Assembly: GCA_038058635.1 (NCBI GenBank)
Contig: JBBUAP010000001.1
Span: 197,190 to 261,189 of the forward strand
Reading direction: 5' to 3'
DNA from: Patescibacteria group bacterium
GTDB lineage: Bacteria; Patescibacteriota; UBA1384; 2-12-FULL-50-11
Length of the DNA stretch: 64,000 nt
How positions within the stretch are numbered: position 1 is the stretch's first letter; every line of letters starts with the position of its first letter. A program made the translations under genes and the position numbers. The notes under the pieces are model-generated. The model did not search any database. It worked only from the letters and a program-made list of their open reading frames with translations, and was not told the DNA's origin. This document shows, piece by piece, positions 2,971-64,000 of the stretch.

Positions 2971-4413
2971 CTAATTGTGTATATTCACCGGTGTACCGAC
3001 CGGAGCGTTATCGTAGACCCAATCGGCGCCGGTATCTTCGATCCGAACACAGCCGTGCGAAACTGGTCGACCCAAGTGGCTGGCCGGTTCACGGGAATTA
3101 CACTGTGGATCAAAACAGGGAACACGATGCAATCCGTAGCCTTGGTATCCCCCTCCGTCCGGGGTTCGAGCAAGGGCGTTCCATTTTTCCATCCAAATCC
3201 CCGGAAACAGCCGTGATTGAGCTAAGGAGATTTTGTTTTTTATGTAGAAAACTCCTGACGGTGTTGGCGTGCCCCTTTTGCCGCTCGAGATCATATATTC
3301 GGCCTGCTTAACTTCACCGACCATTATAAAGAGTCGTTGTTTGGTTAAATTGATGTCGATGTATAAACCCGGCCAAAGGCCGGCGACATAATCGGGATAG
3401 ACTGTCTTCTCGGTGAAGGGGATAGCCCAAGTACTAATAGTGATCGGTGAATTACTGGTGTCAGTTCGTTCGGTAATTGTACGGGTAACATCCTTAGCTA
3501 AACGAGTCAGATCGGTTTCCCGACCGTCTCTCCCCTCTTGGGTTACTTGCTGGGTGTCGAACTGGGTTGTTTTGACCAACATTTTAATGTTGATCTTCGA
3601 AGCGATAGCACTGTTTAGATAGTTACTAACTTTAGTTTGCGAGATGGTATAGCTAATCCGACCATCGACAGGGGAAAAATCGAGAAATGAGTACTGACTG
3701 CTTGGGGTGATGGTGAAATTTTTATCCTCAAAATTGAGGTAGATGGGGGTGAATTTCTGTTCAACCTCGGTTTTTGTTTGGGCGGCGAGCTCGGTAGTGA
3801 TAATCGGTGAACTTTCGGTGTATTCCAGTTCGGCTGAAGCAGCAGTACCGCTTGAGAGGGCCGTTTTTATTGCCGTATCGATGGCGGTGTCCGAAATCGA
3901 AATGCCCTTTTGACCTTCGCTGACTACTAGTTGGCCGTTACTATAACTAATGACGGCGTCTTTGGCGGCGGTGGTGACGCCGAGAATTGTCTCCACTTTC
4001 TGGCGTAAGATAGAAGGATCAGCGTCGTAGGAGAGACCGAGGGTCTTGGAGCTAAACATCGACCGCCAATATTTTAGTGCCAACCAATCGAAACTGTTTG
4101 GTGGCCGAACTGCCTGCGACAAAGTCGACTGCTCGTCCACTTTTACCCCTAATTCATCGAGGGAAGCGCTGGCCGATTTGCCATTTAAGCTAAAAGATAA
4201 CTGTAATCCAGCTAACTCACCGGCCTTGAGCTGGATTTTCTCGGTCGCCGTCGTGTACGGTAGGCCACCGATATCAACGCCGGCCACCATCGTTCGGGGC
4301 AAAACTCGACCCTCGAAATTAAGCGAGGTAATCGCCCCCAGTGCCGCCACGAGTGACAGGACGGCGGTAAAACTGAATAAAGTGATTAGCCCAACTCTTT
4401 TGCGCGAAAACAT
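2971..4413 (-). CDS. L,D-transpeptidase (YkuD domain) with N-terminal TM anchor
   Basis: C-terminal SHGCVRI catalytic motif (H-G-C). N-terminal hydrophobic segment. Confidence 0.8.
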   Translation of the reverse strand: MFSRKRVGLITLFSFTAVLSLVAALGAITSLNFEGRVLPRTMVAGVDIGGLPYTTATEKIQLKAGELAGLQLSFSLNGKSASASLDELGVKVDEQSTLSQAVRPPNSFDWLALKYWRSMFSSKTLGLSYDADPSILRQKVETILGVTTAAKDAVISYSNGQLVVSEGQKGISISDTAIDTAIKTALSSGTAASAELEYTESSPIITTELAAQTKTEVEQKFTPIYLNFEDKNFTITPSSQYSFLDFSPVDGRISYTISQTKVSNYLNSAIASKINIKMLVKTTQFDTQQVTQEGRDGRETDLTRLAKDVTRTITERTDTSNSPITISTWAIPFTEKTVYPDYVAGLWPGLYIDINLTKQRLFIMVGEVKQAEYMISSGKRGTPTPSGVFYIKNKISLAQSRLFPGIWMEKWNALARTPDGGGYQGYGLHRVPCFDPQCNSREPASHLGRPVSHGCVRIEDTGADWVYDNAPVGTPVNIHN

Positions 4414-4493
4414 ATGAGGTAATTGTAGCGCTTTAGGCTTGTACTGTAACTAACCCACTAGTTTTCGTCCGAGCTCTTGTTAAAATAGATTCA

Positions 4494-4691
4494 ATGACGA
4501 CAGACTGGACTGACTTATACCGTCAATATCGTGGCCAATGGGTGGCGCTTGAGGGTGACGAGAAAACCGTTGTTGGTAGTGGCAAAACTGCTAGGCAGGC
4601 ACTTGATAAGGCCATTGCCAAGGGCGTAGCCGAGCCTATATTAACCAAATTGCCCGATCAGCTCGTTCCCTACGTCGGCTACGGCGCATGA
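4494..4691 (+). CDS. DUF5678-family small protein
   Basis: YRGQWVAL core, 65 aa. Stop overlaps the next start (ATGA). Confidence 0.55.
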   Translation: MTTDWTDLYRQYRGQWVALEGDEKTVVGSGKTARQALDKAIAKGVAEPILTKLPDQLVPYVGYGA

Positions 4692-5080
4692 AGTTTGGCT
4701 ACAAAAAATTCGATCACTTCTACCGTCCCGTCATCCCAATTAAAGTCAAATATAAGGGTCTTTCGGTCGGTTATGAAGTTCTGATCGATTCAGGTGCCGA
4801 TTTGTGTATATTTGACGCCGAAATCGGCGAGATTTTAGGGATTGATATTGAAAGTGGTCAGCCAGGAGAAGTTAGCGGTGTGGCGGGTCAAATATCAACA
4901 ATATTCGTTCACACAGTCACGATTGAAATTGGCGGACACTCAAAAGTTATCGATGTCGGATTCCTGTCCAAAGTAACCGATGGCCACAACTACGGCGTTG
5001 TTGGTCAGTACGGTTTTTTCGACCAGTTTGTGGTAGCTTTTGACTATGCGAAAAAAGAGATTGAGCTTAAGGCGCCCTAA
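4688..5080 (+). CDS. retropepsin-like (clan AA) aspartic protease
   Basis: LIDSGADLCIF, a D-S-G-A active-site motif, in a 130-aa single-domain protein. Confidence 0.65.
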   Translation: MKFGYKKFDHFYRPVIPIKVKYKGLSVGYEVLIDSGADLCIFDAEIGEILGIDIESGQPGEVSGVAGQISTIFVHTVTIEIGGHSKVIDVGFLSKVTDGHNYGVVGQYGFFDQFVVAFDYAKKEIELKAP

Positions 5081-5094
5081 CCATTTTTTAGTTG

Positions 5095-5982
5095 TTAAAA
5101 CAGGGCCCTCTTGGTCAGTAGCTCAATAAAGCTTTCGAATGAAATTCCGGCCTTGAGTAGCTCTTTGTTTATCAGAGAGTTTTTTGTTAGGCCGGGCAGC
5201 ACATTTAACTCTAGAAAATAAGGCGTTTTGTCACGCAACATCCAATCGATACGGGCATAATGCCGACAACCGAACTGACGAAATATTTCCTCGGAAAAAG
5301 ACTGGATTTGTTTGGTCATATCATCGGAAATTCTAGCTGGAACTATCTCATCACAACTTATACCGTCGTACTTGGCCTTAAAATCAAAGAACTCATTTTT
5401 TGGCACGATCTCAATAACCGGTAAAGCTTCGACCGAACCGCGCAGATCGATTACTCCGCACGACAGCTCGGTACCACCGATAAGTTCTTCAACTAGTACC
5501 TCGGGCCCAAATTTCTTGGCGGATCTAATTGCTGGCAAGAGCTGGTCATGATTTCTGACAATGGTGACGCCGAAGCTAGAGCCCTCCTGAGAGGGCTTAA
5601 CAACTACCGGCGGGTCGGGAAACTGGTTTGCGGAACCGTCTACAGACCACTTCGGAGTCTGGAACCCCAGTTTTTGAACCGCTAGCTTAGCTTCTAATTT
5701 GTTCCAAGATAACCTACACGCCATTGGCCCGCTTCCGGTGTACGGAATGCCGGCTTTTTCTAGAATCTTTTGGATTTGCCCATCTTCACCAAACTTGCCA
5801 TGAAGAGCCAGGATTACTAGTTGAGGCTGAATGTAACTGATTCTCTCCTGCCAATTATATTCGGCGCAATCTATTATCTGATGATCAAGCTTTAGCGATC
5901 GTAGGGCGGCGACAACCGTCTCGGCACTCCATAGCGCTACTGTTCTTTCGCTGGAATTTCCGCCCGTTAAGACAGCGATCAT
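5095..5982 (-). CDS. ddl: D-alanine--D-alanine ligase
   Basis: ATP-grasp layout. N-terminal IAVLTGGNSSER and HGKFGEDGQIQ are typical of Ddl. Confidence 0.85.
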   Translation of the reverse strand: MIAVLTGGNSSERTVALWSAETVVAALRSLKLDHQIIDCAEYNWQERISYIQPQLVILALHGKFGEDGQIQKILEKAGIPYTGSGPMACRLSWNKLEAKLAVQKLGFQTPKWSVDGSANQFPDPPVVVKPSQEGSSFGVTIVRNHDQLLPAIRSAKKFGPEVLVEELIGGTELSCGVIDLRGSVEALPVIEIVPKNEFFDFKAKYDGISCDEIVPARISDDMTKQIQSFSEEIFRQFGCRHYARIDWMLRDKTPYFLELNVLPGLTKNSLINKELLKAGISFESFIELLTKRALF

Positions 5983-53037: not shown

Positions 53038-53547
53038 ATGGCCAAGAAACCAACCAGTCCAAAACTAACCCACTTCGAAAAAGAACTAGCCGCGGAGCAC
53101 GAGGCCAAGCTGCGCCTGGCGGCGGAGTACGCTAACTACCAAAAACGAGTTGAGGTTGAAAAGGATGCCTTAAGAAAGCACGCCAGTCGCGACTTGCTGG
53201 AAAAACTTTTCCCCATTTTTGATAATTTTTACCGGGCCAGTACACATGCGCCGGAAGTCAGTTTGGAAGATCTGCCAAATCTGACCGAAAGCGATTACCA
53301 GAAAATCTTTAACTATTTTTCTGGCCTGCGTTTGATTGAAAAACAGCTCGAACAAGTTTTGGGCGAAGCCGGACTAAAGCGGATTCCGACTGCTGACCAA
53401 CCATTTGATCACAATCTCCACGAAGCCATCTCTCACGAACCCAGCGTCGAAGTCCCGGCCGATCATATCATTGCTGAAATCGAAGCCGGCTGGACAATCG
53501 ACGACACGGTTATTAAACCCGCTAAAGTCCGGGTTTCCAAAGGGTAG
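53038..53547 (+). CDS. grpE: nucleotide exchange factor GrpE
   Basis: Coiled-coil N-terminus and the C-terminal beta domain PFDHNLHEAI...IKPAKVRV. Confidence 0.85.
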   Translation: MAKKPTSPKLTHFEKELAAEHEAKLRLAAEYANYQKRVEVEKDALRKHASRDLLEKLFPIFDNFYRASTHAPEVSLEDLPNLTESDYQKIFNYFSGLRLIEKQLEQVLGEAGLKRIPTADQPFDHNLHEAISHEPSVEVPADHIIAEIEAGWTIDDTVIKPAKVRVSKG

Positions 53548-53809
53548 GGTAGTTTTGGCCCGGCGGATGCCGGGCCGTTCGGGATGTGACCGGAGATCGG
53601 AAAGGCTGGGTCGTGGATGCAGGTTGGATCGTTCGGTTAGCTCGCGAGCGAAGCGATCAGCTTCTTCCATTGCCGCCAGTAACTTAGTGACATTTTCCGG
53701 CACTTCCAGCCAGGCCTTCACCCGAGTCACTACTTCTTCGGTCGATAGCTTCGTTGGTTCATTGGGCATGATCTGCCTCCTCGTGTCCTAGACTAGCACT
53801 TTCCCGTCC

Positions 53810-53875: not shown

Positions 53876-55804
53876 ATGGCAAAAATTATTGGAATTGATC
53901 TAGGTACAACTAACTCGGCTTCAGCTGTTATTGAAGGCGGCAAAGCCAAAATGATCCCGACCGCTGAAGGCGGCAATCTGGTGCCGTCGATTGTGGCGGT
54001 CAACAAAAAAGGCGAACGCCTCGTCGGCACGCTGGCCAAGCGCCAGTCTGTTACCAACCCCGAAAACACTGTTTACTCCATCAAGCGCGTCATGGGTCGC
54101 AAGTTCGAGGACGAAGAAGTCCAGCGCGACATCAAGCTGATGCCGTACAAAATCGTCAAAGCTAACGGCGGCGTCAAAGTCACCATTGGCGATAAAGATC
54201 AAACCCCCCAGGAAATCTCCTCAATGATCCTCGCCAAGATCAAAGCCGATGCCGAAGCCTACCTCGGCGAAAAAGTCGACGGCGCTGTCATTACCGTCCC
54301 GGCCTACTTCAACGACTCCCAGCGCCAGGCCACCAAAGACGCGGGCACAATCGCCGGCCTCGACGTCAAACGCATTATCAACGAACCAACCGCCGCCGCT
54401 CTGGCTTACGGAATCAACAAAGAAGACAAAAAAGATCAGAAAGTCGCCGTTTACGACTTTGGTGGTGGAACATTTGACATCACCATCATCGAAATCGGCG
54501 AAGACAAAGGCGAATCCAGCTTCGAAGTCCTCTCCACTAACGGCGACACGCACTTAGGCGGTGACGATATCGACATTCAAGTCATGAACTGGATTGTCGA
54601 TGAATTCAAAACCAAAGAAGGGGTTGATTTGAAGGGTGACGCCATGGCGATGCAGCGCGTTAAAGAAGCAGCGGAAAAAGCCAAGATCGAACTCTCGCAA
54701 ACCCAAGAAGCCGAGATTAACCTGCCGTTTATCTCTGCTGATGCTGATGGTCCAAAGAACCTTCAGATGAATCTCTCCCGCGCCAAGTTGGAAAATTTGG
54801 TTGGCGATCTAGTCAAAAAAACCCAGGGCATCTCCGAGGCCGCCCTCAAAGATGCCAAACTGACCAAAGCTGACATCGACGAAGTAATTCTCGTTGGTGG
54901 TATGACTCGCATGCCGTTAATCCAGCAAATTGTCAAAGATGTTTTTGGCAAAGATCCGAGTAAAGGTGTCAACCCAGACGAAGCCGTTGCCTTAGGTGCG
55001 GCCATTAACGGCGGCGTGCTTTCCGGTGAAGTCAAAGACATTCTCTTGCTCGATGTCACCCCGCTGACACTGGGCTTGGAAACATTGGGTGGAGTAATGA
55101 CGCCGTTAATTGAGCGCAACACCACTATCCCCGCCTCCAAAACCGAAACCTTCTCGACTGCTAGCGACAATCAGCCTTCAGTTGAAATTCATGTTTTGCA
55201 GGGCGAACGACCGATGGCCGGCGACAACCGTACTCTGGGTAAATTCCATCTCGATGGTATTCCACCGGCTCCGCGTGGCGTCCCGCAAGTCGAAGTCACC
55301 TTCGATATCGACGCCAACGGCATTCTCAATGTCAAAGCCAAAGACAAAGCGACTTCCAAAGAGCAACACATCACCATTACCGCCAGCTCTGGTTTGTCCA
55401 AAGAAGAGATCGAAAAGATGAAAACCGAGGCCGAGGCCCATGCCGCCGACGACGCTAAGAAAAAGGAACTCGTCGAAGAGCGCAACGCTGCCGAAAACCT
55501 CATTCACCTCTCCGAAAAAACCCTCAAAGACGCTGGCGACAAGGTCAAGCCAGACGACAAGCGCGAAGTCGAAGACGCTGTTACCGCCGTCAAAGCCGTC
55601 ATCCACAACGACGACAAAGACAAAATCAAAGAGGGAGCGGAAAAACTAAGCGCCGCCCTCCAAAAAGTTGGCGCCGCGATGTATAAACAGAACGCTGCCG
55701 ACGCGCCAAAACCGGAAGAAGAGCTGCCAAAGGACGACGGCACCCCGGACACAAATGTGCCGGAAGAACCAAAGTCGGACGAGCCGAAAGAAGAAGCAAA
55801 GTAA
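53876..55804 (+). CDS. dnaK: molecular chaperone DnaK (Hsp70)
   Basis: [18 protein letters not shown], and the full-length Hsp70. Confidence 0.95.
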
Positions 55805-55826: not shown

Positions 55827-55856
55827 GCGGCGGGCTTATCAGCCCGCCGCTTTTGT
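55827..55856 (+). terminator. intrinsic terminator of dnaK
   Basis: GCGGCGGGCT-tatc-AGCCCGCCGC followed by TTTTGT. Confidence 0.75.
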
Positions 55857-55988
55857 AAGCACTGTTCGGTTAACCTGGGAAAGAGTAAAATATGAGCAAT
55901 GTCTGACGATCAAAATAACCAACTTCGAACTCAATTTTGGGAGGCTGCCAGAGGGTTAGTAGCAAGCCCTAGAAACATATAACAAATC

Positions 55989-57050
55989 ATGCGCGTAATT
56001 ACTTGGAATGTGAGAAGGGCAACGGAAACAAGTGCTGTCTGGAAAATTTTAACTGATATGAATCCAGATATTGCATTGCTCCAGGAGGTAACGAGCATCC
56101 CAGAAGTTATCAAGGAATCATTTAAAGACGGTATCAAATTTCACAAAGCCATCGGTAAAACTGGAAAACCTCAACAGTTTGGTACTGCAGTTCTGGTGAA
56201 GGGGAAAATCATTGACGAGCTACCCCTATCTTCCGAATATGATTGGGTAAATCACGAGCTTGAGTACTTCGCTGGGAACCTCGTAGCTTGTGTTGTCCAG
56301 CCTACCGGATATCCAAAACTCAATGTCGTTTCTATTCATAGCCCTGCTTGGCCAATAGACACTTCTAAACATCAGAATATTGATATTGAAACAATAAAGC
56401 TGAAACAAAATCCGAAGCTATGGGTTACTGAAATTCTTTGGTCTGCTCTGAAGAATGCGAATTTAGTAGATGTTCCATGGATTGCGGGTGGCGACCTAAA
56501 CAGTTCAGAAACTTTTGACTCAACTTTTGGTGGAGGAAACAGGGAATTTCTCGATAGGATGGGAGCATTAGGTTTTACTGAATGTCTTAGAAAACACCAC
56601 GGTAAGTTGGTCCCGACATTTAAAAATCCGAGGGATAAAAGAATAACTCATCAAATAGACCACCTCTTTGTGACTAGTCCACTCAACTCAACACTAGAAG
56701 CATGTAGCATAGGAGACGAATCGGCTATTTTCGGGGGATCGGTCAGCGACCATTTACCAATAATCGCGGACTTTAAGTACTCACAAGACATACCACCCTC
56801 TATAGAAAATTTCATCGCTAAGAATAACTGGGTCTTTGCCAAAACCATGGCCGAGATACCTCACTATTATATTGTGAGAGATAATTTATCGGAAAATGAT
56901 AAGAAACTATTTGATGAATTTGATGTGTTTATAAAAAACAATGGCTACACAAAAGAATTCTACTCCAAGCAATACACCTATTTTGATGTAGGGAAATTCA
57001 GATATTGGGTAATAGAGAACATTCTAAACAGAGCCGAGTTAGAAATTTAA
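55989..57050 (+). CDS. endonuclease/exonuclease/phosphatase (EEP) family nuclease with ~85-aa C-terminal extension
   Basis: VITWNVR start, GGDLNS, SDHLPI: the EEP catalytic motifs. AT-rich codon usage. First gene of the island. Confidence 0.7.
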   Translation: MRVITWNVRRATETSAVWKILTDMNPDIALLQEVTSIPEVIKESFKDGIKFHKAIGKTGKPQQFGTAVLVKGKIIDELPLSSEYDWVNHELEYFAGNLVACVVQPTGYPKLNVVSIHSPAWPIDTSKHQNIDIETIKLKQNPKLWVTEILWSALKNANLVDVPWIAGGDLNSSETFDSTFGGGNREFLDRMGALGFTECLRKHHGKLVPTFKNPRDKRITHQIDHLFVTSPLNSTLEACSIGDESAIFGGSVSDHLPIIADFKYSQDIPPSIENFIAKNNWVFAKTMAEIPHYYIVRDNLSENDKKLFDEFDVFIKNNGYTKEFYSKQYTYFDVGKFRYWVIENILNRAELEI

Positions 57051-57133
57051 AGGCGCGCAAGTAACGACTACTGATAGGACCGACGATTTTTCTATGAATT
57101 GAACCTGTTTTACGATACAATCTAGTCAAGACA

Positions 57134-58831
57134 ATGCCAAAAACAGATATTTCGGTCAGAGAATTAGTAGACAAAGTTCAACATAACGATCTAATCCTTC
57201 CGGAAATGCAGCGTCGTTACGTCTGGACCGGTACTCGTGTCAGAGATTTGCTCGACTCGCTATATCGATGTTACCCGTCGGGTACGATCTTAGTTTGGGA
57301 AACAGACGATAGTATCAAGACTAGAAGTCTGGCTGTTGGCATCAGCGGGAACCCGACCACATCTCAGAAGCTGCTACTTCTAGATGGTCAGCAACGCCTA
57401 ACTTCTCTTACCGCTGTTCTTAACGGTCAACCAATTATTATCCGGAATCGTAAAAGACCTATCGATATCTTGTTCAACCTAGAGCACCCGGAGGGTCCGC
57501 CAGTCGAAATAGACGAAGTGTACGAAAACGGTAATTCGGAGGCACCCCAAGAAGATTCGCAGGAAGTACAAAGAGATCTCCAGGAAGAATTGAAAAAACG
57601 TACATTTGTTGTCTCTTCACCTGTATTAAGAAATGATCCCCACTGGGTTAATGTGTCCGATATATTCACTAAGACTGACAGGGAGATTCTAAAACCAATT
57701 GGAATTAATTCCGATGATGAAATTTGGGAGAAGTATTCAGACCGACTGAAGAAGGTCCGAGATATTAAGGACTACCAGTATGTGATGCAGGTACTTCAGA
57801 AGAATATGTCGTATGAAGAAGTTACTGAAATCTTTGTTCGGGTTAACTCGCTCGGTGCGAAATTGCGTAGCTCTGATCTTGCCCTAGCCCAGATAACCTC
57901 AAAGTGGCGTGGATTTATGGACCTGCTTGAAAAGTTTGCTGACGAATTTGGCGATGATTCAGAATATGTCGCCGAATGGGTAGCAATCAGAATGTTAACT
58001 GTATGCGCAACCAAGCAATGTAAGTTCAAATCTATTAACCGAGTTAGTAAGGAAAATCTGGAAGTGGCTTGGACACAAGCCAAGGCCGGAATGCATTTTG
58101 CCATCAACTTTTTGCGAAACAATGCTGGCATAGAATGCCTAAACCATATATCCGCATCGATGCTGATAATTCCAATAGCAGTATATGCATCGCTTAAAAA
58201 CGAAAAGCTAAGTCCACTTGAGGAAAAACAATTACTGAAATGGTTTTATTATGCCCATATGCGCGGCCACTACGGCATGGGATCATCGGAAAGCATTTTG
58301 AATGCAGACTTAGCGGTACTTTATAAAACCAAAAGTGTCGAGGAGCTGCTTAAGAGCTTATTTGCTCATGTAAAACAATTTGAAGTCACACCTCAAGAAA
58401 TTGCAAAAAAAGGTACTAATAGCCCGTTCTTCACCATGCTTTACTATATTTTGAAGCATGGGGGTGCCAAGGATTGGTTTACTGGAATAAAAATCTCTGA
58501 GAAATCCACTGGCTCATCTCACACCATCCAATACCACCATATTTTCCCTAAGTCACTCTTGCAGAGACTGAATGTCGATTCCCAAGAGATAAACGAGATA
58601 TCCAACCTCGCTTTCATAAGCGGAAGTACTAACAGAGAGATAACGAACAAAGAGCCCAAGGTCTATCTCCAAAAACAAGTAATCGAAAGAAATGGTGAAG
58701 AAACACTAGTGTCCCAACTAATTCCGCTAGATAAAGATATGTGGGAACTCAGTAATTATAATCAGTTCCTAGATTACCGACGCGAAGCCATCACGAAGGC
58801 AATAAATAAATTTATGAAAACTTTCGAATAA
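57134..58831 (+). CDS. GmrSD-like type IV restriction protein (DUF262 ParB-like NTPase/nuclease + DUF1524 HNH-like)
   Basis: DGQQRLTSL (the DGQQR motif) in the N-terminus. C-terminal IQYHHIFPKS (DUF1524 His-Me finger). Confidence 0.75.
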   Translation: MPKTDISVRELVDKVQHNDLILPEMQRRYVWTGTRVRDLLDSLYRCYPSGTILVWETDDSIKTRSLAVGISGNPTTSQKLLLLDGQQRLTSLTAVLNGQPIIIRNRKRPIDILFNLEHPEGPPVEIDEVYENGNSEAPQEDSQEVQRDLQEELKKRTFVVSSPVLRNDPHWVNVSDIFTKTDREILKPIGINSDDEIWEKYSDRLKKVRDIKDYQYVMQVLQKNMSYEEVTEIFVRVNSLGAKLRSSDLALAQITSKWRGFMDLLEKFADEFGDDSEYVAEWVAIRMLTVCATKQCKFKSINRVSKENLEVAWTQAKAGMHFAINFLRNNAGIECLNHISASMLIIPIAVYASLKNEKLSPLEEKQLLKWFYYAHMRGHYGMGSSESILNADLAVLYKTKSVEELLKSLFAHVKQFEVTPQEIAKKGTNSPFFTMLYYILKHGGAKDWFTGIKISEKSTGSSHTIQYHHIFPKSLLQRLNVDSQEINEISNLAFISGSTNREITNKEPKVYLQKQVIERNGEETLVSQLIPLDKDMWELSNYNQFLDYRREAITKAINKFMKTFE

Positions 58832-58920
58832 GCACGATGGGGAATAACAATTTGCTGGGACCCAGCGACCGTAAAAACTTTCCTGTAACTCAAGTCCTGT
58901 TGGTAGTAAAATCGGACTAG

Positions 58921-59103
58921 ATGGACGTGGGCAAGTACGAAGCATTCAGGGAGGGTTTCTCGAAAATGACAAATGAGGAACTGGTAGAAGCTCTCCGAGA
59001 TGATAACAGAAAGGCCGGCTGGACAAGTTCTAGGGATATGTTTCTAGGGGCGCTTAAAGAAGAATTCAAGCAAAGGGGTCTACATTATCCTCCGAATCAA
59101 TGA
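58921..59103 (+). CDS. hypothetical small protein flanked by direct repeats
   Basis: 60-aa ORF. Flanked by degenerate direct repeats AATTTGCTGG(G/C)ACC(C/T)AGC at ~58847 and ~59119. Confidence 0.3.
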   Translation: MDVGKYEAFREGFSKMTNEELVEALRDDNRKAGWTSSRDMFLGALKEEFKQRGLHYPPNQ

Positions 59104-59243
59104 ACAGTAACAATGACTGAATTTGCTGGCACCTAGCCCGCTGTTTGCTACCCGAACATTTCCCGTAAAATATGCTCTTGACAGTGTAATAGACTGCAGT
59201 GGTAGGGTGAGGATGCAGTTTACTGCCTAGAAAGGAGAAGAGA

Positions 59244-59393
59244 TGGCAAAAAACGAAAAAACTGGTAAAAAGCCCGGGACGATTGCTTCGGAACTGCTTA
59301 GATCTAAGGCAATCCCAAAGAGAATCAAGACTGTAGCAGCAAGTGACCTAACCCAGCGACCAGACAAGCGTAAAATGATACGCAAAAAGTAAC
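59244..59393 (+). CDS. hypothetical small basic protein (49 aa)
   Basis: AAAGGAGAAGAG RBS then ATG. MAKNEKTGKKPG...KRKMIRKK is Lys/Arg-rich. Not in the supplied ORF track because it is under 60 aa. Confidence 0.35.
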
Positions 59394-59492
59394 TTCTCGA
59401 GGGTAGAGCCAGCGGGCGTAAGACCCACTCATGACTCAATTCGTGGAAGGTAGGGCGTTACCAACGGCGACCATTAGACAGAAGTTCGCAAG

Positions 59493-59515
59493 AACCCGCT
59501 TTATGCGGGTTTTTG
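59493..59515 (+). terminator. intrinsic terminator
   Basis: AACCCGC-tttat-GCGGGTT followed by TTTTT. Confidence 0.7.
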
Positions 59516-59557
59516 CTATGAATCCAACCTGTTTAGCAGTACAATTTGGGCAGATTA

Positions 59558-60226
59558 ATGAAAATAAAGGATTTGCCAAAAGTTGAACGCCCAAGAGAGA
59601 AGCTTATCACCAAAGGCGCAGAGAATCTTAAGGACTCGGAGCTATTGGCTATTCTTTTGCGTACGGGTAAGGCCGGCAAAAATGTGGTTGAAATTGCTTC
59701 GCAGATTTTAACCAAGTATTCCAAAAAGCGACTTTTACAAATGACCTATCAGGACTTCTTGAATGTAAGCGGAATTGATTCGGCAAAGGCCACAACGCTT
59801 CTCGCCGCCTTCGAGCTCTCAAAACGGGCGCTGGAAGTTGACGATACAAATTTGCCAATAGTTGCCACTCCCAAAGATGTTGTCGCCCACCTGACAGATT
59901 TGTGCGACAAGCAAAAGGAGCATTTCGTGGCGTTGTATCTTAATGCCCGTAATCAAATAATCCATAAAGAAACAATTTCGGTTGGCACGCTAACTGCTTC
60001 CCTAGTGCATCCGCGCGAAGTTTTCGAACCAGCGATACGACATTTCGCCTCATCGATAGTTGTCGCCCACAACCACCCTTCCGGCGATCCCGCACCATCA
60101 GAGGAAGATATTAAGCTGACGAAAAATCTAGTCCAAGCCGGTAAAATACTGGACATAGATTTGTTTGATCATATTATTGTGACCAAGAACGTATTTTTTA
60201 GCTTTAAAGAAAAAGAACTAATTTAA
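59558..60226 (+). CDS. radC: RadC-like JAB/MPN domain protein
   Basis: LPKVERPREKL N-terminus, HhH, and the HNHPSGDPAPSEED JAMM motif. Confidence 0.85.
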   Translation: MKIKDLPKVERPREKLITKGAENLKDSELLAILLRTGKAGKNVVEIASQILTKYSKKRLLQMTYQDFLNVSGIDSAKATTLLAAFELSKRALEVDDTNLPIVATPKDVVAHLTDLCDKQKEHFVALYLNARNQIIHKETISVGTLTASLVHPREVFEPAIRHFASSIVVAHNHPSGDPAPSEEDIKLTKNLVQAGKILDIDLFDHIIVTKNVFFSFKEKELI

Positions 60227-60236
60227 TTAAATAACT

Positions 60237-61826
60237 ATGAAAACTAATCGAAAACAATTACACGAGAGACTCTGGTCAGCGGCGGTACAACTCCGAGCAA
60301 ATTCTGGGTTGAAGCTCAACGAAATATCCGAGCCAATATTGGGTCTGATTTTTCTTAAGTTTGCCGATGTTCGTTTTAAGAAAGTTCAGACGGGAATCGT
60401 GTCAGAGAGAAAGGCCGAGTATTCTACTTCCACCCGCGTGCGCCCCGTCAGCCCGGATGACTATAAGTCAAAAGGCGTGTTGTATCTGCCTAAAATCGCT
60501 TCGTACTCATATTTAATGAACCTGGCGGAAAGTAGCAATATTGGCAAAGCCATCAACGAGGCAATGCAAGCGATTGAAGAGGCCAATACCGACCTAGCTG
60601 GTGTTTTGCCACAGGACTACACCTCTTTGCACAAAAAGGCCGATGAAAACAGTCAAATTTTGATAACGCTTCTCAAAAATTTCAACCAAATTCCCGACGA
60701 TATTGAGGGCGACGCCTTCGGTGGAATCTATGAATACTTTCTGGGTGAGTTTGCCCGTGCCGAAGGAGCCAAAGGTGGCGAGTTCTTTACACCGCAATCA
60801 ATCGTCAAACTATTAGTAGAGATTATTGAGCCGTATCACGGGAAGATACTTGATCCGGCCTGTGGAAGTGGCGGAATGTTTGTGCAATCGGCTAATTTTG
60901 TTAAATCTCACACTAACGGCAAGTCGCAAGTAATGAACGAAGTAGCGCTTTACGGTCAAGAGAAAGGTAGCAGTAATATTCGAACCGCCAAAATGAATCT
61001 GGCGATTCATGGCTTGTCTGGAAAAATTGCCGAGGTTAACTCTTTTTACGAAGACGCCTTTCAAAGCGTGGGTAAGTTTGATTTTGTGCTGGCCAACCCA
61101 CCGTTTAATGTCAAAGGTAAAGATAAAAACGGCCAGATCGTCATTGATCCAGCTCGTCTTCAGGGCGATCCGCGCTATTATCTCGGTTTGCCACTCACAG
61201 GCAAAAAAGAAATCAGCAATGCCAATTATCTCTGGATGCAAATGTTTGCCAGTGCCTTAAATCCGCAAGGGCGAGCGGGGTTTGTGATGTCCAATGCTTC
61301 TGGGGACGCTGGCAATGCGGAAAAAGAAATCCGCAAAAAAATGATTGATGCCGGAATGGTGGATGTGATTGTGTCGGTTGGAAACAATATGTTTATGAAT
61401 GCGACGCTCTCCTGCACGCTTTGGTTTTTCGACAAACGCAAAGCAAATTCAGACAGGAAGAACAATATTCTCTTCATCAACGCTCAAGATATTTTCACGC
61501 CAGTTCCGGATGAGCGTGTCGATAGATATTGGACCGATGAGCAAATTCAAGAGATTTCCTCTATTGTTCGACGGTATCGCGCCGAAGAAGGCGAAGTTAA
61601 CTACCAAGACAGTAAGGGACAATGCAAAGTGGCGACGCTTGATGAAGTCCGCACCAATGACTACTCGCTCAATCCGGGGCGGTATGTCGAGATCGTAGAA
61701 AAAGAAATGAGCGATGTGGACTTTGACGCTAGTATGAAAGAATTGATGGGCGAATTTACCGGTCTCACCACGCAAGCGCACAAGCTAGAAAATAAAATCC
61801 AGGAGGATTGGAAAAAGATTTTATAA
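60237..61826 (+). CDS. hsdM: type I restriction-modification system DNA methyltransferase subunit M
   Basis: HsdM N-terminal domain, the AdoMet motif DPACGSGGM, and the NPPF motif LANPPFN. Confidence 0.9.
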   Translation: MKTNRKQLHERLWSAAVQLRANSGLKLNEISEPILGLIFLKFADVRFKKVQTGIVSERKAEYSTSTRVRPVSPDDYKSKGVLYLPKIASYSYLMNLAESSNIGKAINEAMQAIEEANTDLAGVLPQDYTSLHKKADENSQILITLLKNFNQIPDDIEGDAFGGIYEYFLGEFARAEGAKGGEFFTPQSIVKLLVEIIEPYHGKILDPACGSGGMFVQSANFVKSHTNGKSQVMNEVALYGQEKGSSNIRTAKMNLAIHGLSGKIAEVNSFYEDAFQSVGKFDFVLANPPFNVKGKDKNGQIVIDPARLQGDPRYYLGLPLTGKKEISNANYLWMQMFASALNPQGRAGFVMSNASGDAGNAEKEIRKKMIDAGMVDVIVSVGNNMFMNATLSCTLWFFDKRKANSDRKNNILFINAQDIFTPVPDERVDRYWTDEQIQEISSIVRRYRAEEGEVNYQDSKGQCKVATLDEVRTNDYSLNPGRYVEIVEKEMSDVDFDASMKELMGEFTGLTTQAHKLENKIQEDWKKIL

Positions 61827-61829
61827 GTA

Positions 61830-61874
61830 GTTTACATTAGACTTGCTAATGTAAACGAAAACATGTAATATGTT
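61830..61874. promoter_or_regulatory. tandem palindromes upstream of fic: GTTTACATTAG-acttg-CTAATGTAAAC and AAACAT-gtaat-ATGTTT
   Basis: Perfect 11-bp and 6-bp inverted repeats read directly. A TAATAT -10-like hexamer sits 12 nt before the fic ATG. Confidence 0.5.
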
Positions 61875-61883
61875 TATATCTAA

Positions 61884-63062
61884 ATGAGCAATGTAAACAA
61901 AGCAAAAATAGGCCGATATACAACTCAGAAAGAGGGTTTTAAAGCCTTTACGCCTTTTCCATTCCCCCCAAAGGACAGTTTTGAGATAAGCCCACATCTG
62001 CATAAAAAACACGAAGAAGCCATCAGATTGGTCGGCAAGCTCGATGGCATTACGCATCTTTTGCCAGACAAAGATTTCTTTCTTTTGATGTTTATTAAAA
62101 AGGATGCGGCATATTCAAGCCAAATCGAAGGTACAAAAGCCACTTTGCAAGATGCAGTCGCGGCTCCTGTAACCGAAGAAAAATCTCGTATGCATCCGGA
62201 TGTAGATGACATCACCCATTATGTTAATGCAGTCAATTACGGGATTGAGAGAACAAAAACATTGCCCATTTCTCTGCGACTGATAAAAGAAATACACGCT
62301 CGCCTTATGACAGGCGCACGGTCAACCCAGCATGCCTATCCGGGAGAATTTCGGCGTAGCCAAAATTGGATTGGCGGGAAATCGCCGATGGATGCATCTT
62401 TCGTACCTCCAGCACCGAATGATATGCAGAATTCTTTGGACGATTTGGAAAAATTTATTCACGCAAAAGACGACCCACCTTCTTTGATAAAAGCAGGTTT
62501 ACTTCACGCGCAATTTGAGACGATCCATCCATTTACAGACGGTAATGGTAGAACAGGGCGAATGCTTATTGCCATGTATATGCATAGTGCCGAGCTTTTG
62601 GAGTTGCCGATTCTGTATCTTTCAAGCTATTTCAAAAAGCACCAGAAACTGTATTACCAAAAACTACAGGAATACCATGACGAAGACGCAAACATCAACG
62701 GATGGTTGGAATTTTTCCTTGAAGGCGTGGCGGAAATAGCCGACTCTTCTGTTGAAACATGCGCAAAAATTACCGCCCTACGAGACAAAGATTTTGCCAA
62801 AATGCAAAAACTCGGCAAAAAATCCGCGGAGTCCACGCTGGAAATAGTCCGCAAATTATATGGCCAGCCAATCGTTGGCGTGGCGGAAATTATGAAGTGG
62901 ACGGGTTTTACCGCGCCCGGCGCATACAAAATTATTGAACGCCTCAAGAATCTGGGAATTCTTGATGCTCTTGGTGATGCTCAATATGGCCAAAAATACA
63001 TCTATGCTGATTATTATGAAATTTTCGACGACTCTTTCAGAGATGCAAGGGCGAAAAAATAA
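61884..63062 (+). CDS. fic: Fic/DOC family protein
   Basis: HPFTDGNGRTGR matches the canonical Fic motif HxFx(D/E)GNGRxxR. Confidence 0.9.
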   Translation: MSNVNKAKIGRYTTQKEGFKAFTPFPFPPKDSFEISPHLHKKHEEAIRLVGKLDGITHLLPDKDFFLLMFIKKDAAYSSQIEGTKATLQDAVAAPVTEEKSRMHPDVDDITHYVNAVNYGIERTKTLPISLRLIKEIHARLMTGARSTQHAYPGEFRRSQNWIGGKSPMDASFVPPAPNDMQNSLDDLEKFIHAKDDPPSLIKAGLLHAQFETIHPFTDGNGRTGRMLIAMYMHSAELLELPILYLSSYFKKHQKLYYQKLQEYHDEDANINGWLEFFLEGVAEIADSSVETCAKITALRDKDFAKMQKLGKKSAESTLEIVRKLYGQPIVGVAEIMKWTGFTAPGAYKIIERLKNLGILDALGDAQYGQKYIYADYYEIFDDSFRDARAKK

Positions 63063-63064
63063 CA

Positions 63065-64000
63065 ATGGCAACTTTTCAGAAAGTAAGAATTAAAGATATT
63101 TGTAAAATTAACCCCGATTCAATAGGGCGTAATTTTAACCATAAGATGATAGAATACGTGGATATTTCAAGCGTGGGTATTGGTAACTTAGCCGAAACTC
63201 AAGAGGTAGATATTCAAAATTCACCCAGTCGAGCTAAACGGTTAGTAAAATCAGGAGATATAATTATTTCAACCGTCAGACCAAACAGAAGATCGTTTTT
63301 CTACTTCAAAAATCCAAAAGAAAATACTGTTGTTTCTACGGGATTTGCTGTTTTGAGGGCGTTGGAAAACAACAACCCAAGATATTTATACTACTCTGTC
63401 ACAGATCAATCATTTACGGCTTATTTAACCAAAAATGCTAAGGGTTCTGCTTATCCTGCGGTGGATGCGGATATAATTTATGATGGTGAGGTTTTTGTTC
63501 CTGAAAATATTGAAACTCAAACCTGCATTGCCTCTGTCCTTTCTGCCTACGACGACCTGATTGAAAACAACGAAAAGCGCATCAAGCGCTTGGAAGAAAT
63601 GGCACAACTTCTATATACCGAATGGTTTGCTTTGCCGTCCGTAGCTCATAGCGATAGCGAAGATGTAAAGGAGGGTGAACTACCAGAAGGATGGGAGGTG
63701 AAGAAATTGGGAGATTTAATAAAAATAAAAAGGGGAAAGAATATAACCCTTGAAACAGCTAGACCCGGTAATATTCCTGTCGTTGCCGGAGGTTTAGAGC
63801 CAGCTTATTTTCACGATACGCCAAATGCCAGTGGTCCTGTGGTTACAGTAAGTGCGTCGGGTGCAAATGCGGGATTCATGCGATTATACTTTGAAAAAAT
63901 TTGGGCCTCAGATTGCTCCTTCATCGATTCAAGTGTTACGCCGCACGTTTACTTTTACTACTTATTTTTGAAAAGCAAAAAGGATACCGTTTCTCGTTTG
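63065..64000 (+). CDS. hsdS: type I restriction-modification specificity subunit S (partial, runs off the window)
   Basis: Target-recognition-domain layout. Conserved central helix region NEKRIKRLEEMAQLLYTEWF. No stop codon before the window end. Confidence 0.8.
   Translation, partial: MATFQKVRIKDICKINPDSIGRNFNHKMIEYVDISSVGIGNLAETQEVDIQNSPSRAKRLVKSGDIIISTVRPNRRSFFYFKNPKENTVVSTGFAVLRALENNNPRYLYYSVTDQSFTAYLTKNAKGSAYPAVDADIIYDGEVFVPENIETQTCIASVLSAYDDLIENNEKRIKRLEEMAQLLYTEWFALPSVAHSDSEDVKEGELPEGWEVKKLGDLIKIKRGKNITLETARPGNIPVVAGGLEPAYFHDTPNASGPVVTVSASGANAGFMRLYFEKIWASDCSFIDSSVTPHVYFYYLFLKSKKDTVSRL

Follow-up and report, generated by a model that had tools for sequence, protein, structure and literature searches.

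Genes for GmrSD-like proteins of the BrxU type are frequent beside type I restriction-modification (R-M) loci or embedded in them, and the system catalogued as HEC-05 corresponds to BrxU (Payne et al., bioRxiv 10.1101/2024.01.29.577857). Genes embedded in type I R-M loci in the same orientation have also been documented, under the term 'guilt-by-embedding', EcoprrI-PrrC being one example (bioRxiv 10.1101/2024.01.29.577857), and SoFic is known as an abortive-infection AMPylase (PMC12249575). Here we describe the segment 55862-64000 of a window of 64,000 nucleotides (the whole stretch of DNA that was analysed, from contig JBBUAP010000001.1 of a Patescibacteria group bacterium). Downstream of dnaK, this segment codes for a nuclease of the EEP family carrying an additional C-terminal domain (called X below, and the whole protein EEP-X), for a GmrSD-like protein and for a type I R-M operon with radC and fic genes. 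A first-pass annotation had seen here an AT-rich defence island and had proposed that the EEP nuclease may constitute, with the GmrSD-like protein encoded next to it, a two-gene module of immunity.

We consider, with a probability of about 0.78, that this segment is a defence island in a genome of the candidate phyla radiation (CPR), acquired by horizontal transfer and composed of independent modules that adjoin one another: EEP-X, the GmrSD-like protein and a complete type I operon. The EEP and GmrSD-like genes would then be neighbours because defence genes cluster and not because the two proteins act jointly. The GC content falls from 0.491 (bases 1-55800) to 0.425 (55862-64000), the drop begins at the dnaK terminator, and all the island genes in the window, from EEP-X to HsdS, lie on the + strand. 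Together with the map of open reading frames (ORFs) and the profile searches, this drop confirmed the AT-rich defence island after the dnaK terminator; the domain identities and gene coordinates of the first-pass annotation were also confirmed, by the ORF map and by searches with Pfam, PADLOC and NCBIfam profiles. Its statement that every gene is associated with defence or mobile elements is slightly overstated: the island consists mostly of known modules, but such a role is not demonstrated for two small ORFs and for the EEP protein. A PADLOC check of the region matched HEC-05, MTase_I, SoFic and Specificity_I but gave no match for the EEP protein. The DNA beyond the window was followed on the source contig (L130, a Patescibacteria metagenome-assembled genome whose protein P0241 is 100% identical to the GmrSD-like protein); a tRNA scan of this contig for an integration site found none. 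All the features are collected in Table 1.

The association of the two genes was examined in 124 EEP loci, drawn from viral contigs as well as from genomes and metagenomes and corresponding to 105 non-redundant loci, 72 of which have 2 kb or more of flanking sequence on one side or on both; GmrSD genes were searched with four divergent DUF262 queries in a range of 5 kb. We observed a GmrSD-like gene within this range in 3 of the 105 loci (L001, L050 and L027). In L001, EEP-X is followed, after a gap of 88 nt, by GmrSD_N and then by HsdR and HsdM. In L050 (the same locus as L007), EEP and GmrSD are split by two unrelated genes, one of which is RhuM. In L027 GmrSD comes before EEP, the EEP protein is devoid of the C-terminal domain and the GmrSD protein is 42% identical. 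The three loci differ in order, in spacing, in the type of EEP protein and in the GmrSD subfamily (23-42% identity).

The neighbourhoods were also surveyed by a Pfam census. The 150 neighbour genes of all EEP loci fell into 130 families, with GmrSD_N counted twice and no dominant partner, and the 106 genes within ±3 of the X-bearing loci fell into 104 families (GmrSD_N twice, N6_Mtase three times, ResIII, SNF2 and PDDEXK twice each). Of the EEP relatives with a known context, the closest (P0003 in L148, 76% identity) stands near a Type ISP R-M gene and a ParB-methyltransferase/LexA-like region, with no GmrSD. Among the relatives at 59-75% identity, a GmrSD gene is adjacent in L001 only and near in L050; none is adjacent in those at 59-70%. 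Conversely, none of the four close relatives of the GmrSD-like protein (62-82% identity) has an EEP neighbour, and three of the four have a DNA methyltransferase (MTase) neighbour; these relatives are P0243 (82% identity, HTH...GmrSD-HsdM), P0245 (77%, GmrSD-orf-Eco57I-type MTase), P0246 (68%, DUF2130-GmrSD-GIY-YIG) and P0318 (62%, HTH-GmrSD-N6_N4 MTase).

In a two-gene immunity system, the GmrSD-like protein could for example sense or nick modified DNA, which the EEP exonuclease would then degrade. The adjacency and the common orientation noted by the first-pass annotation were confirmed in the ORF map: a spacer of 83 nt, in which no terminator is recognisable, separates the two genes, and adjacency recurs in L001 and L027, with L050 two genes apart. 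Against joint action stand the low frequency of the association among EEP loci, the variation of all its features from one locus to another and the close relatives of either gene found without the other. In addition, BrxU-type proteins act alone, R-M methyltransferases are equally frequent beside EEP-X and the GmrSD-like gene has a promoter-like element of its own. We consider such a system very improbable, and the proposal of a two-gene module did not survive this survey, with its 3 associations in 105 EEP loci, its 0 in 4 GmrSD relatives and its variable order and spacing; that the two genes do not co-occur elsewhere, an outcome that the first-pass annotation had itself named as speaking against the module, is essentially what we found. 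As judged from the loci compared, EEP and GmrSD are not a conserved module, and the few juxtapositions fit the ordinary clustering of genes in defence islands.

The promoter-like element has the pattern CTATGAAT-N-AACCTGTTT-N5-TACAAT, with exactly two matches in 64 kb for 0 expected, one upstream of the GmrSD-like gene and the other upstream of radC; it is absent upstream of the EEP gene in the 64-kb window. Its core is also present 5' of hsdM in a related Patescibacteria island (L125, 5326-5343). Since the element is common to the GmrSD-like gene and radC and is absent before the EEP gene, the GmrSD-like gene would be a transcription unit of its own, regulated like the type I cassette. This suggests that it is transcribed apart from the EEP gene, and the element may be a shared regulatory site of defence cassettes in this lineage. 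A generic scan for promoters and terminators remained below shuffled expectation and was uninformative.

Several points weigh against an island of independent defence modules. The promoter-like element was identified by a consensus-type argument, and CPR promoters are poorly known. The four independent juxtapositions of EEP and GmrSD genes (in the window, L001, L050 and L027) exceed random gene placement, and a loose functional synergy of the two is possible; these juxtapositions are no commoner than R-M genes beside EEP-X. Moreover, many EEP-only homologues stand amid metabolic or housekeeping genes, and EEP-X as a defence gene has neither experimental nor catalogue support, PADLOC giving no match.

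The EEP domain itself was then characterized by its residues and its predicted structure. Among 27 relatives, variation is absent or almost absent at the catalytic residues N7, E33, D169, N171, D224, H225, D254 and H255. A dead EEP domain, which the first-pass annotation had mentioned as a possible outcome of an alignment, is ruled out by this conservation. The AF2 model of EEP-X (pLDDT 84) has its best Foldseek matches with ExoIII (1ako), Mth212, APE1, NExo and the L1/TRAS1 endonucleases, and on the basis of this model the domain is assigned to the DNA-acting clade of EEP proteins. EEP-X lies far under the xth equivalog cutoffs (38 vs 99 bits for TIGR00633 and 31 vs 183 bits for TIGR00195). 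Its relatives comprise about 30 full-length proteins (57-79% identity), patchy in phylogeny and spread over unrelated phyla, and hundreds of EEP-only proteins (~265 aa). The contexts of the family include type I and ISP R-M genes, McrBC-like genes, PDC-S11, toxin-antitoxin (TA) genes and recombinases.

EEP-X could be a housekeeping or repair enzyme, namely an AP (apurinic/apyrimidinic)-endonuclease/3'-exonuclease placed at the island edge, with X as a non-defence accessory domain that binds a lesion or a partner. Its nearest folds are indeed base-excision-repair enzymes, there is a weak match with the NCBIfam xth family, and the EEP-only homologues with housekeeping neighbours as well as the missing PADLOC match are in line with such a role. 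However, the EEP gene has the lowest GC content of the island (0.395, vs 0.49 for the genome), the relatives are distributed patchily at high identity, the xth score is far from its cutoff and the neighbours are often R-M, mobile or TA genes. We consider a repair function unlikely. The best supported view is that of a DNA nuclease, EEP-X, which is complete in itself, moves horizontally and carries a portable recognition or gating domain, X. It would work alone, encoded by a single gene, as a DNA nuclease of the ExoIII/APE1 type directed or gated by X through the binding of a ligand or of a nucleic-acid feature, and its role would be anti-phage.

Two homologues of the EEP protein have particular features. 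On a contig labelled 'Candidatus Peribacteria' (L010, 8001-9100), an EEP-X homologue contains six in-frame stops, all of them TGA, and four of the six are at conserved Gly positions. A pseudogene was considered and ruled out by this pattern; the TGA codons at conserved glycines indicate genetic code 25 (UGA = Gly). On plasmid pK101b of Sinorhizobium sp. K101 (L157, 4635-5804), a homologue with 35% identity has an N-terminal extension of ~120 aa in place of X. This homologue, which comes from a cultured organism, adjoins a pair formed by an AAA ATPase and a restriction endonuclease, IS66, and ImmA/IrrE with DUF4411. The pair ImmA/IrrE (Peptidase_M78) and DUF4411 is common to L157 and L001.

The first-pass annotation had described the C-terminal domain as uncharacterised, with ~85 aa; we delimited ~88 aa, in agreement with this description, since no family matched. 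The best Pfam score was that of CotH (0.007, under cutoff), NCBIfam and PADLOC gave no match, the PHROG score (0.02) was not significant, the X profile run against PDB sequences returned noise only, and no PDB fold gave a convincing match. The model of X alone is very confident (pLDDT 92.6). In an alignment of 57 sequences, the invariant residues comprise a conspicuous aromatic and polar set (W281, K285, T286, H292, Y294, F308, F324, Y331, Y339, W340, N347 and R348) in addition to A284, M287, P291, I315 and G319; the domain is near-neutral, with a mean net charge of -0.7. The X profile found 4,728 clusters in a database at 90% identity, and an exhaustive search gave 3,222 representative clusters (50% identity) at E<=1e-3, 1,650 at E<=1e-10. 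Among the best 120 and the best 150 matches, most are stand-alone proteins of ~85-155 aa, and no Pfam domain is on record for the best 120. X thus appears to be an undescribed domain family. In BFVD it has one match, an unnamed viral protein of 93 aa, and single-protein scans of viral contigs gave only 4 contigs. Since tblastn of X and EEP-X against 50,697 phage genomes gave no matches, neither would be a phage-borne family.

The distribution of X is modular. In the window protein and its close relatives X is fused to EEP. It is a separate ORF directly 3' of EEP, with typical operon junctions, in L058, L096, L120, L111, L113/L124 and L117; it is 5' of EEP in L067 and convergent to EEP in L061 and L112. 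About 70% of the EEP-family loci are without X, so X would be an accessory and not an obligatory antidote. Other nucleases are also found as partners. Stand-alone X genes lie 3-13 bp 3' of unannotated genes of 317-368 aa with PD-(D/E)XK-type motifs in L125, L126 and L127, the partner in L125 matching the PADLOC candidate PDC-S11 (2e-16), and a Rhizobium partner has a weak PDDEXK_4 match. X adjoins HNH nucleases and a C5-MTase in L150 and L151, and McrBC, WYL and HIRAN genes on a Butyrivibrio plasmid. On a Desulfotalea plasmid it is fused to an N-terminal region of ~345 aa. Among 36 longer proteins, we observed fusions of X with class I S-adenosylmethionine (SAM) methyltransferase domains (8), an HD domain, DUF6508 and, weakly, ParB_N, and also tandem X-X proteins.

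CapRel is an example of a fused TA system, and EEP-X could similarly be a fused toxin-antitoxin or an autoinhibited abortive-infection nuclease, X being the antidote or the sensor that silences the nuclease until a phage factor binds. The stand-alone nuclease and X pairs could be the unfused versions, with a small protein directly 3' of the nuclease gene or overlapping it, fused or split; one small family associated with several nuclease folds is reminiscent of 'promiscuous' antitoxins, and TA genes are frequent in EEP neighbourhoods. Yet the numerous EEP loci without a nearby X indicate that the nuclease is tolerated alone, and the fusions of X to SAM methyltransferases, to an HD hydrolase and to itself in tandem are odd for an antitoxin. 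In addition, the strictly conserved aromatic and polar residues suggest one common ligand and not three unrelated nuclease folds. We hold an antitoxin-like X to be improbable, and retain a nuclease with a portable recognition or gating domain. We propose tentatively, as a possibility that we do not rate as the likelier outcome, that X is an undescribed and very widespread recognition or regulatory module, recombined with at least three nuclease folds and with methyltransferases, and possibly a reader of some feature of the DNA, for example a base modification.

Other loci with X were observed in related and in unrelated DNA. The related Patescibacteria island of L125 (2529-9533) contains Fic, the PD-(D/E)XK-like gene (PDC-S11) with a stand-alone X, HsdM, DUF4357 and HsdS, and its stand-alone X protein is 90% identical to the X domain of the window. 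The comparison of the two sequences indicates that the X module is swapped between nuclease partners within a near-identical island architecture. In the genome of the window itself, a DUF6994 gene is found 3' of hsdR (L130, 21639-21698). In L150 (3237-3983), an unrelated contig, a DUF6994 gene (5.5e-90) is directly upstream of a stand-alone X gene and an HNH nuclease gene. DUF6994 and the X domain may be linked.

In the GmrSD-like protein, the DUF262 domain is well recognised by PF03235 (107 bits, cutoff 33.2), with DGQQR at residues 84-88. The DUF1524 domain reaches 21.1 bits with PF07510, just under the cutoff of 23 bits; its HHIFP motif at 468 is aligned with DHIYP of BrxU, and the downstream N residues are present. 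The protein matches PADLOC HEC-05 over its full length (HMM positions 23-594 of 600, 3e-50) and BrxU (7P9K) over residues 7-551 (E=3e-15), with RDLLDS (37), DGQQR (84) and HHIFP (468) in register with RLFDS, DGQQR and DHIYP. PF03235, HEC-05 and the BrxU alignment bear out the DUF262/DUF1524 type IV restriction protein of the first-pass annotation, and on these alignments it is classified as a predicted type IV enzyme of the BrxU/HEC-05 type. It would be a stand-alone enzyme, in which an NTP-dependent DUF262 domain and a His-Me/HNH DUF1524 domain attack modified phage DNA. As the association of GmrSD-like genes with type I R-M loci was previously described, the arrangement of a BrxU-like gene and a type I operon in the window is already known; it presumably provides a complementary attack on modified and unmodified DNA.

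The type I operon continues beyond the window. On the source contig we found HsdS (385 aa), an unannotated gene that we call orf291, HsdR (1052 aa) and DUF6994; HsdR contains HSDR_N, ResIII, SWI2_SNF2 and T1RH-like_C. With HsdM and HsdS in the window and HsdR on the source contig, the type I system is complete, and hsdR is located past the window as had been presumed. The position of Fic between hsdM and hsdS, also read in the first pass, agrees with the ORF map and the Fic profiles, and the RadC (JAB) assignment holds with PF04002 and with the NCBIfam RadC profile above its cutoff. Fic covers positions 5-359 of 361 of PADLOC SoFic, and its catalytic motif HPFTDGNGRTGR at 215, of the form HxFx(D/E)GNGRxxR, and its inhibitory motif SSQIEG at 78 are intact. 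With the NCBIfam SoFic equivalog NF046030 it scores 141 bits for a cutoff of 550, and therefore 'SoFic-like' is the safe label. The radC-hsdM-[fic]-hsdS-orf291-hsdR operon would attack unmodified DNA, with the embedded SoFic-like AMPylase as an abortive-infection back-up, so that defence would be organised in layers.

Two genes of this operon deserve a separate mention. The radC gene ends 10 nt 5' of hsdM. In an unrelated metagenome contig (L088, ~4098-5945), a radC (46% identity) is also adjacent to hsdM; some type I R-M operons may recurrently begin with radC. The orf291 gene (291 aa; L130 17569-18444, ~64702-65577 in window coordinates and hence outside the window) separates hsdS from hsdR. 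With Fic, it brings the embedded genes of the type I operon to two, and its product is probably a coiled-coil protein.

Between the GmrSD-like gene and radC, the basic ORF of 49 aa is probably genuine. An Rfam scan of the island for a non-coding RNA in the gap of the small ORFs gave no match. Upstream of the island, an antisense ORF of 131 aa (53374-53769, - strand), present as a gene call in the public record, overlaps the 3' end of grpE and the grpE-dnaK spacer. No family matched this ORF, which is probably spurious.

Table 1. Positions and supporting evidence of the features of the island and its left edge (window coordinates)
Feature	Position	Strand	Evidence or remark
dnaK	53876-55804		Upstream of the island
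dnaK intrinsic terminator, left edge of the low-GC island	55827-55856	+	GC-rich hairpin GCGGCGGGC-TTATCA-GCCCGCCGC and T-run TTTTGT, read directly
EEP-X gene	55989-57050	+	353 aa; PF03372 at residues 4-255, 48 bits (cutoff 24.5)
EEP (ExoIII/APE1-like) nuclease domain, residues 1-265	55989-56783	+	PF03372, catalytic residues, AF2 model
X domain, residues ~266-353	56784-57050	+	alpha-beta-beta-alpha-beta4 fold
Promoter-like element, copy 1 (~30 nt)	57092-57121	+	12 nt before the GmrSD-like ATG
GmrSD-like, BrxU/HEC-05-type (DUF262 + DUF1524)	57134-58831	+	565 aa; PF03235 1.7e-30
Small ORF, 60 aa	58921-59103	+	No family match; doubtful coding status; gene call on L130
Small basic ORF, 49 aa	59243-59392	+	Strong ribosome-binding site AAAGGAG; phage family phrog_5079 at 3.7e-6
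Terminator-like hairpin	59493-59514	+	AACCCGC-TTTAT-GCGGGTT and T-run, read directly; separates the small ORFs from radC-hsdM
Promoter-like element, copy 2	59515-59545	+	12 nt before the radC ATG at 59558, just after the terminator-like hairpin
RadC (UPF0758_N + JAB)	59546/59558-60226	+	HNHPSG at residue 175; PF04002 1.9e-44; NCBIfam NF000642 245 bits (cutoff 180)
HsdM methyltransferase	60237-61826	+	DPACGSG, NPPF; PF02384 5.5e-81, PF12161, PADLOC MTase_I 7e-182
Fic, SoFic-like class II AMPylase	61884-63062	+	PADLOC SoFic 1.1e-106; Fic and Fic_N of Pfam
HsdS, cut by the window end	63065-64000	+	PF01420; PADLOC Specificity_I 4.8e-43

In this CPR bacterium, the island illustrates layered defence in textbook form; it is a useful annotated example and not a surprising one. 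A real EEP and GmrSD module would have meant a new two-gene defence system, and the evidence says no. The possible novelty is in X. Its fusions and neighbours, with several nuclease folds, methyltransferases and R-M contexts, resemble those of the domains that act as readers or regulators in modification-dependent restriction enzymes. If X does read a DNA feature, EEP-X and its split versions would constitute a new restriction-like class, and this class would include the first restriction-type enzyme on the EEP (DNase I/ExoIII) fold; to our knowledge, no EEP-fold restriction enzyme has been described. The characterisation of X could in addition assign functions to thousands of small 'hypothetical' proteins and to their nuclease partners.

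When compared with BrxU/HEC-05 (7P9K), the GmrSD-like protein aligns end to end, has the same DUF262-linker-DUF1524 architecture with the motifs in register and has an R-M-type system alongside, but the identity is low, its nuclease motif starts with H instead of D and PF07510 is just below its cutoff. The gene is also upstream of the type I operon and not inside it, and the enzyme is predicted from its sequence. The operon resembles the embedded loci of the EcoprrI-PrrC type, with the order hsdM-[embedded]-hsdS-...-hsdR in one orientation and a Fic protein that matches SoFic over its full length with intact motifs. It differs from EcoprrI-PrrC in that a Fic AMPylase is embedded instead of PrrC, and in the presence of orf291 between hsdS and hsdR; it differs from the known type I R-M and SoFic systems by radC at the operon front and by a Fic protein below the NCBIfam SoFic equivalog cutoff.

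EEP-X shares the fold and the whole catalytic constellation (N7 to H255) of ExoIII/APE1/Mth212 and of the LINE-1/TRAS1 endonucleases. It is distinguished from them by an identity of 16-21%, an xth score far below the cutoff, the extra X domain and a mobile or defence context. With the modular type IV enzymes, in which SRA, EVE, YTH or wH readers are combined with PD-(D/E)XK or HNH nucleases, X has in common its joining, by fusion or adjacency, to EEP, PD-(D/E)XK-like and HNH partners and its R-M-rich neighbourhoods. Unlike their readers, X has no detectable kinship in sequence or fold with a known reader, its binding to nucleic acid is hypothetical, and it is also found on class I methyltransferases of a non-DNA type and on an HD domain. 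EEP-X is an uncatalogued variant of the theme of a nuclease with an accessory domain, and the whole island is a further case of kinds already known: a type I R-M system in which a SoFic-like gene is embedded, with a BrxU-like type IV enzyme at its flank.

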